Counted from the stretch's first letter, positions 62,919-63,482 are shown. The stretch is 64,000 nucleotides of DNA from Escherichia coli (GCF_030013205.1 NZ_CP122648.1); one strand, 5' to 3'. Numbers and translations: made by a program. Notes: generated from the sequence alone by a model not told the origin.

Positions 62919-63482
62919 ATGCTGAATAATAGAGATATGAATATTAATGAACTTAAAGATTGTATTCACTATGAAGTAATCGGTAGCGAGCGTCCTTTCT
63001 CCTGGCGAAAGGCAATTGTTCGCGCAATAAAACATAGAAGAGTTCGTTATTTATTTTGGTGGCGCATAGCCAAATACCTTTTTGATAAAGGCGGATACTG
63101 TCGGAAGATTGCGGGGAAAATAGAACGTTTCATTCTTGATAAATATAATGTAACAGTCCCTTTAACTGTAAATATAGGGAAAGGCTTTGATATTTCTTAT
63201 CTCAACAGTGTTGTTATCGGTCACAAAGTAACAATCGGTGAAAATTGTTCAATAAAACCAGGGGTAACTATTGGGCTGCGTGGTGATTTTAATGATATGG
63301 ATATTGTTATAGGACATAATGTGACCATTGGTTGTAATGCCACCATTCTTGGTGGCAAAGTGCGTATAGGAAACAATGTCACAATAGGTGCTCATGCATT
63401 GGTATTGCATGATATTCCAGATGATTCAACATTCATCACTAAATTTCAGTCTGAAGTTATCTGCTCGTCCTCCCGCACATAA
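62919..63482 (+). CDS. hexapeptide-repeat (left-handed beta-helix) acyl/acetyltransferase, probable prophage cargo gene
   Basis: 187-aa ORF with tandem [LIV]-G-x-x-x-x hexapeptides ([53 protein letters not shown]); AT-rich. Confidence 0.7.

Follow-up and report, generated by a model that had tools for sequence, protein, structure and literature searches.

A tail-fibre cassette shared by unrelated Escherichia coli phage backbones carries a gene for a predicted serine acetyltransferase-fold protein with a replaced catalytic pair

The closest functional precedent for the gene described here is NeuO of prophage CUS-3, a hexapeptide-repeat O-acetyltransferase of the K1 capsule that is encoded beside a receptor-recognising tail protein. 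Its substrate is proven, and it modifies the polysaccharide that is bound by its own phage. NeuO belongs to another beta-helix subfamily and is phase-variable through a heptanucleotide repeat at the 5' end of its gene. Related positional logic is seen with Z/fun of P2, llp of T5 and cor of phi80 and N15, which are exclusion genes located by the receptor-binding module and expressed from the prophage. Proteins of the llp/cor type block an outer-membrane protein receptor and are not enzymes. The known seroconverting phage acetylases are mostly membrane proteins of the Acyl_transf_3 type, with a different fold.

The tail-fibre-proximal insertion hotspot of P2-like phages has been described as 'moron position 2' (PMC3573123) and as the Z/fun hotspot (10.1101/2024.10.15.618418), and defence systems abound in the P2 hotspots (10.1101/2024.10.15.618418). 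NeaT, from prophage phi-b0847 of E. coli CFT073, is encoded at this moron position, next to the tail-fibre assembly gene G, and has a tested virulence phenotype (PMC3573123). Like the gene studied here, it is a single AT-rich foreign gene that is transcribed against the tail genes, occurs in several unrelated phages and encodes a putative acyltransferase affecting surface-related behaviour. Because NeaT is a membrane Acyl_transf_3 protein (PF01757) and the product described below is a soluble beta-helix protein, the two genes are not homologous; identity with NeaT was rejected and it is a positional analogue only. Z/fun, llp and cor likewise share position with the gene, without sequence or fold similarity.

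By fold, the closest solved structures are those of the serine acetyltransferase (SAT) CysE (PDB 1T3D, 6WYE and others), which match the last helices of the helical domain and the beta-helix. The mechanism of SAT employs His158 as the base, activated by Asp143 (PMC8786284). CysE acts in cysteine metabolism, in contrast to the phage context found here. The short SAT-like polysaccharide acetyltransferases EpsC and WcaB are similar to the phage protein in size and architecture.

The locus was found in a 64,000-nucleotide stretch of an E. coli genome (NZ_CP122648.1), referred to below as the window. Scanning it for ORFs gave an intact plus-strand ORF at 62919-63482 (187 aa), as the initial annotation had indicated when it described an AT-rich gene at this position. 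The start codon needs correction: ATG 62937 most likely is the real start, since all relatives begin there and the upstream ATG at 62919 is destroyed in a 91%-identical allele. The coding sequence thus runs from 62937 to 63482 on the plus strand, and the 181-aa product is 100% identical to RefSeq WP_001447286.1 ('transferase', annotated from 62937). It comprises a helical N-terminal domain (residues 1-69) and a beta-helix (residues 70-175), with Tyr88 and Thr73 at the positions of the catalytic pair. The G+C content of the gene is 0.36-0.37, against 0.51-0.59 in the neighbouring tape-measure and gpU genes and about 0.52-0.57 in the vicinity.

Upstream lies the P2 gpU tail gene (62254-62748, plus strand, identified by Pfam), and the cargo segment begins just past its stop codon, where similarity to ordinary P2-like prophages ends within a few bases. 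Directly 3' of gpU, at 62750-62801, we found an imperfect inverted repeat with 18-nt arms that are 83% complementary. Downstream, the tail-fibre assembly gene Tfa (Caudo_TAP, E 7e-40) occupies 63446-64000 on the minus strand and is cut by the window end; it is 618 bp at full length in related genomes. The predicted overlap of about 37 bp between the two convergent 3' ends was confirmed at 63446-63482, and it is kept in three other phage backbones. The last 12 Tfa codons are antisense to the 3' end of the acetyltransferase-like gene, and the Tfa C-terminus is 13 aa longer than in phages JL22 and phiNP (205 vs 192 aa). Since these extra codons are the antisense of the neighbour's 3' end, the overlap looks like read-through created when the genes were joined.

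With a non-conserved gene convergent with Tfa and transcribed against the late genes, the locus corresponds to the Z/fun hotspot, in agreement with the proposed variable-cargo position next to the P2 tail-fibre assembly gene (PMC3573123; 10.1101/2024.10.15.618418). The gene is a single-gene prophage moron at a hotspot of this type and not a metabolic enzyme. The sheath gene FI, the expected neighbour on the other side, is not there; gpU adjoins the gene instead, because this prophage lineage has the FI-FII-E-E'-T-U block in the opposite orientation to classical P2 (window, 58515-62748; L001, 13207-20049; L016, 5643-12495). Complete genomes with the same DNA have the order ogr and D (minus strand), FI, FII, E, E', T and U (plus strand), the gene (plus strand), and Tfa, H, I, J, W and V (minus strand). 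The gpD protein of the inverted lineage is short, with 266 aa vs 333-374 aa in two other phages. This arrangement was found in at least 112 complete genomes, at sites near raiA/bamD, tRNA-Leu/pgsA and btuC, and its recurrence at different chromosomal sites suggests that it is viable or spread by recombination. U, the gene and Tfa occur together in 112 genomes, and the same U gene in about 1485. In the O6:H16 prophage, a further cluster of cargo is found at the end past ogr, comprising a Hok/Gef toxin gene, a truncated gene for a Com-family regulator, an IS100 and a DNA methyltransferase gene (L001, 9415-12712).

The copy in the window belongs to a prophage remnant. The genome matches porcine ETEC strains, in which the remnant adjoins btuC and consists of D', IS66 and IS3 pieces, T', U, the gene and Tfa, with no more than 654 bp left of the fibre gene. 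Within the window, an IS66-family tnpA (57838-58515) abuts a P2-type gpD fragment (58515-59345, minus strand), and the 5'-truncated P2-type tape-measure gene (59311-62247) begins with an in-frame fusion to a transposase orfA fragment of IS3 type. FI, FII and E are missing because of the latter junction. Despite dissection of the remnant by insertion sequences, the acetyltransferase-like gene, gpU and Tfa are intact. A few kb upstream of the remnant in strain ETEC1748, with IS66 between, lies a His-Xaa-Ser radical-SAM system (hxsB, hxsC and hxsA; L106, 1-2306).

A candidate sigma-70-like promoter was found at 62869-62897 on the plus strand (TAGAAA, 17-nt spacer, TACAAT), based on its match to the consensus and on its conservation. 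The -10 element reads TATAAT in two other alleles. The candidate is located in a stretch of some 70-90 bp that accompanies the gene in each of the four backbones compared; even between unrelated flanks the site is retained, or has the better -10 TATAAT. Searches at 62700-63600 gave no tandem repeats, including the heptanucleotide repeat of NeuO type in the 5' coding region, so that this feature of NeuO is absent from the gene. A structured-RNA search of the region with Rfam gave a single match, a sub-threshold IS009 hit inside Tfa (63522-63720, minus strand; 80.8 bits vs a gathering score of 117, E 3e-18), which probably reflects homology to Tfa-derived sequence and not a separate RNA gene.

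The gene is transferred together with one Tfa/fibre-tip allele among three backbones. These are P2-like prophages at different chromosomal sites, a 47-kb RepA phage-plasmid with lambda-like head genes that also has a phage form (vB_EcoM-613R2), and a P1-like phage-plasmid. The whole cassette is present in 199 of 5426 complete E. coli genomes. Across the carriers the protein is 96-100% identical and the matched DNA 94.5-97%, and between the three backbones Tfa is 98.5-99.5% identical. The fibre differs between them outside its last approximately 220 residues, which show 90-96% identity. The unit common to all three begins near 62849, 88 bp upstream of the start codon. Tfa/tip alleles with at least 95% identity were found in about 156 records, about as many as there are carriers. 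The wider Tfa/tip family (80-90% identity, e.g., K-12 stfR/tfaR) is present in 3926 genomes, and those listed are without the gene. The copy on phage-plasmid pSCU-204-5 retains, upstream of the gene, the last approximately 90 bp of P2 gpU together with the gpU-proximal inverted repeat (L017, 6999-7091). This footprint indicates that the phage-plasmid obtained its cassette from a P2-like prophage of the inverted lineage. Carriers span several serotypes, including O6 and O139, and no single O-antigen is therefore obvious as a substrate.

More distant homologues show a similar preference for tail-fibre surroundings. Those of P1-like phages JL22 and Ro157c2YLVW and of Citrobacter phage phiNP (36-40% identical) are all convergent with Tfa, as is the 53%-identical homologue of Hafnia phage yong2. 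JL22 and phiNP also share Tfa (52-77% identity) and the fibre tip (64-77%) with the window cassette. Among 30 non-redundant IMG/VR loci, taken as members below 90% identity with enough downstream DNA to judge, 13 have a convergent Tfa within 60 bp and Pfam revealed one more, giving at least 14 of 30. Two further placements are next to tail genes: a homologue lies just 3' of the fibre genes in a Salmonella tail-gene cluster, and phages of the Streptococcus thermophilus 987 group carry one co-directionally between structural and lysis genes. Other locations occur as well. Some homologues adjoin the integrase of P2-like phages. The phiNP homologue is beside hicAB. One 51%-identical homologue lies alone between copA and cueR on a Citrobacter-type metagenome contig (L013, 6001-6552), with no phage genes near. 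Another, 36% identical and with the canonical histidine, is convergent with a gene of the HtrL_YibB family (E 1e-78; L099, 3029-4616). This family is found beside the LPS core (waa) cluster in E. coli K-12, and the neighbour gives a weak hint at a link to LPS. The fibre of phiNP, which is of the same tip family, binds LPS outer-core glucose II (PMC9659904).

The gene itself has database entries, and published phage papers note it as a 'serine acetyltransferase' without explaining its role (PMC9603915, PMC6456863). In the literature on phiNP, P1-like JL22 and the S. thermophilus 987 phages it is listed or left unexplained, and functional data were not found there. What we add is that the name is almost certainly wrong, that the catalytic pair is replaced under purifying selection, and that the gene belongs to a mobile cassette of fibre tip and chaperone.

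Homology searches placed the protein on a CysE-type fold. The Pfam profile Hexapep (PF00132) gave 47.5 bits against a cut-off of 27. The structure was modelled as a monomer from a 129-sequence alignment and reached a pLDDT of 95.8, with four helices (residues 3-69) followed by the beta-helix; it superseded an earlier model from 31 sequences, in which the beta-helix had a pLDDT of only 50-63. With this model, the top 50 Foldseek matches in the PDB were all serine acetyltransferases (TM 0.62-0.77), and a family profile matched CysE with E 4e-38 over residues roughly 100-270 of CysE. The protein thus is modelled with a left-handed beta-helix fold of SAT type, and it presumably is cytoplasmic and trimeric. 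Among phage families, the protein falls into PHROG phrog_2154 (E 4e-79, residues 5-186 vs profile positions 2-184 of 185), which is annotated as 'unknown function'. A search of PADLOC-DB 2.0 returned 0 families at E up to 1, and the idea of a known anti-phage defence system was rejected as PADLOC gave no match.

Assignment to a named enzyme fails at several points. None of the equivalog cut-offs in NCBIfam was reached. TIGR01172 (cysE) scored 70.5 bits vs a cut-off of 210.65 and NF008349 44.2 vs 397, the WcaB models NF007564 and TIGR04016 gave 62.2 vs 196 and 59.8 vs 194.65, and EpsC (NF041874) gave 80.7 vs 150. The EpsC match covers positions 16-157 of the 168 in the profile, and because this is almost end to end, a sugar or polysaccharide acceptor is suggested for the wider family. 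Unlike WcaB and EpsC, the gene is not in a polysaccharide biosynthesis cluster, its neighbours being phage tail genes. The membrane Acyl_transf_3 domain of Oac/OafA is lacking too; all matches are of Hexapep type and the model is that of a soluble protein. Compared with CysE, about 100 N-terminal residues are missing, Pfam detected no SATase_N domain, and the C-terminus (...CSSSRT) does not end in the Ile that binds CysK. The best homologues are not core CysE enzymes, an outcome that would have spoken against the initial annotation, but proteins of about 180 aa, which mostly lie in phage or prophage surroundings where these could be read.

The active site sets the protein further apart. Three independent alignments (phmmer to PDB, MAFFT and hmmalign) place Tyr88 and Thr73 at the positions of CysE His158 and Asp143, and the serine-binding residues Asp157, Arg192 and His193 correspond to Ser87, Met121 and Asp122. 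The numbering of the E. coli CysE sequence was confirmed by the mapping of D143 and H158. Residues were tabulated for the best 150 of 259 cluster representatives (E below 1e-30) together with earlier matches. Within this set, the catalytic column contains His in all 145 aligned relatives outside the window clade and the partner column has Asp or Glu in 107 sequences. Tyr at the catalytic column appears there only in the window alleles, P0007-10, P0013, P0014/15 (identical to Hafnia phage yong2 at this column) and one unrelated representative. The partner residue in the Tyr-bearing clade is Thr, Lys or Val instead of Asp or Glu. This loss of the family-consensus His also separates the window clade from EpsC and WcaB. 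As the histidine that defines the family is lost, the database name 'serine acetyltransferase' is almost certainly wrong.

Members of the clade have further substitutions in common, namely Met121-Asp122 and a Pro108 where other sequences have Gln. The residue at 122 corresponds to His193 of the CysE substrate loop and is His in P0013; Asp/His122 is therefore a candidate for a relocated base. The window protein keeps the five Gly and one Ala of the beta-helix that make up all six invariant columns of alignment A1. The Tyr-bearing sequences form three robust sublineages. Their monophyly received neighbour-joining bootstrap values of 39/100, or 10/100 without the marker columns, and with such low values we do not claim a single origin for the Tyr. 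The earlier proposal of a left-handed beta-helix acyltransferase accordingly stands for the fold, as judged from Hexapep, the model and Foldseek, and not for an active enzyme, given the exchange of the catalytic His for Tyr and of Asp/Glu for Thr. To judge from the alignments, activity as an acyltransferase cannot be assumed for the gene product.

The replaced residues occur in a gene that is under strong purifying selection. Synonymous sites are saturated between the sublineages, and dN/dS was therefore calculated from close pairs only. It was 0.068 for the window vs the P1-like allele (32 synonymous and 9 non-synonymous differences), 0.019 for the window vs the phage-plasmid allele (14 and 1) and 0.052 for P0014 vs yong2, with an overall range of 0.02-0.09. 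Intact ORFs are found across all three sublineages despite the saturated synonymous divergence. Most of 37 near-identical IMG/VR copies are intact as well, the others being three that end at a contig end and one with a 3' deletion (L060). Disruption, which the initial annotation had named as evidence against its proposal, is rare in close relatives, with one IS1 insertion (H68) and one type of 3' deletion (L060 and H147). The deletion variant (L060, 4983-5915; H147, NZ_CP024260.1) lacks the last approximately 20 codons of the gene, which there abuts the 3' part of another fibre gene, annotated with a pyocin knob domain; Tfa and the bulk of the original fibre are missing.

To explain these features, we tentatively favour a role in editing the receptor that is read by the linked fibre cassette, with acetyl transfer retained in a rewired active site; we consider this possible and short of probable. 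The prophage-borne gene would be expressed in the lysogen from its own promoter-like site, and its product would act at the cytoplasmic face on an envelope glycan precursor, which could be LPS core, an O-unit or another polysaccharide. Such a modification may alter or mask the receptor recognised by the co-travelling fibre. Lysogens would thereby be protected from superinfection, no progeny would be lost by adsorbing to them, and surface antigens might change too. Acetyl transfer would be kept through Tyr88 and Asp/His122, with an acceptor other than L-serine. The retained transfer is suggested by the replacement at Tyr88/Thr73 taken together with the clade-shared Pro108 and Met121-Asp122. What points to the receptor is that the gene is tightly coupled to one tip/Tfa cassette in phages that are unrelated. 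Several points should be set against it: activity may be lost, since the near-invariant catalytic His of SATs is missing; the known seroconverting acetylases mostly have a different fold; the range of carrier serotypes singles out no O-antigen; and the linkage to Tfa may be no more than a permissive insertion site carried in recombining fibre cassettes, since many relatives are not beside Tfa.

The last of these points leads to the strongest alternative, in which the gene is cargo of the hotspot and acts inside the cell with no relation to the fibre's receptor, for example in defence or counter-defence by acetylation of a small molecule, a nucleotide or a protein. Adjacency to Tfa would then only show which positions in P2-, P1- and Mu-like phages are open to insertions. 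The wealth of defence systems in P2 hotspots fits this, as do the relatives in the integrase-proximal P2 hotspot and the position of the phiNP copy beside hicAB. The PADLOC search was negative, though, and the gene stands alone without a partner. Distant carriers also have homologous versions of all three components, the gene, Tfa and the fibre tip, and a frequency of at least 14 of 30 beside Tfa looks, as a rough estimate, well above what random placement among a few dozen genes would give. We regard such cargo as an unlikely explanation.

The loss of the catalytic pair raises the alternative of a pseudoenzyme that has kept the SAT fold, and probably binding of CoA or another ligand, and no longer transfers acetyl groups. 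It would instead bind a glycan precursor, a host envelope enzyme or a component of an incoming phage. That both residues of the pair were replaced together, and that three well-separated sublineages retain the exchange at saturated synonymous divergence and low dN/dS, agrees with a new, selected and possibly non-catalytic role. Conservation of every invariant Gly/Ala position of the beta-helix argues in the other direction, as does the clade-specific Asp/His122, which could serve as a replacement base. Moreover, some beta-helix acetyltransferases work without a catalytic base. A protein that has given up catalysis appears distinctly unlikely to us when these points are combined.

Linkage to the fibre could also mean that the protein matures the virion, by acetylating the adjacent tail fibre or helping it fold. 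The tight association with Tfa and the tip, and the co-directional homologue in the S. thermophilus 987 group, would suit such a function. The enterobacterial copies, however, oppose the late operon and have their own promoter-like site, the wider Tfa/tip family exists in 3926 genomes compared with 199 that have the cassette, and the gene is intact in a remnant prophage that cannot make tails. A part in fibre maturation is thus very unlikely. Even less credit can be given to a functionless passenger, a decaying foreign gene hitch-hiking with the fibre cassette: its AT-rich foreign composition and the occasional disrupted copies (IS1, 3' deletion) are as expected for one, whereas dN/dS values of 0.02-0.09, intact ORFs in all three sublineages and mostly intact IMG/VR copies are not. 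A true serine O-acetyltransferase, which as a CysE isozyme would raise the lysogen's cysteine synthesis or O-acetylserine signalling, is the least credible candidate and was rejected: the closest structures, the best named profiles and the names of several records are those of serine acetyltransferases but the scores fall far below the cut-offs, SATase_N is lacking, the active-site residues are replaced and the tail reads ...SSRT.

Receptor editing by acetylation, the reading we favour, may apply beyond the window. Proteins with the SAT fold could be widespread and unrecognised 'receptor editors' of fibre cassettes in P2-, P1- and Mu-like phages and perhaps in S. thermophilus phages, evolving and moving along with the fibre tip and its chaperone, with the window clade having exchanged His/Asp for Tyr/Thr and a relocated Asp/His in one to three lineages. 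This generalisation is speculative, and we would call it doubtful as it stands. If true, it would imply either a new mechanism of acetyl transfer that is independent of His or a selected pseudoenzyme that blocks receptor synthesis. Either way, a catalytic pair that is replaced under strong purifying selection provides a test case for distinguishing a change of mechanism from a pseudoenzyme among beta-helix acetyltransferases.

The cassette is carried by about 200 of 5426 complete E. coli genomes, porcine ETEC/EDEC and human isolates among them, and also by P1-like phage-plasmids that spread resistance genes, while databases propagate the name 'serine acetyltransferase'. If receptor editing is true, the gene would be another case of an exclusion gene riding with receptor-binding genes. 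It would then represent a compact, transferable genetic basis for phage resistance and perhaps for surface antigenicity, with relevance to phage therapy, host-range engineering and serotyping.
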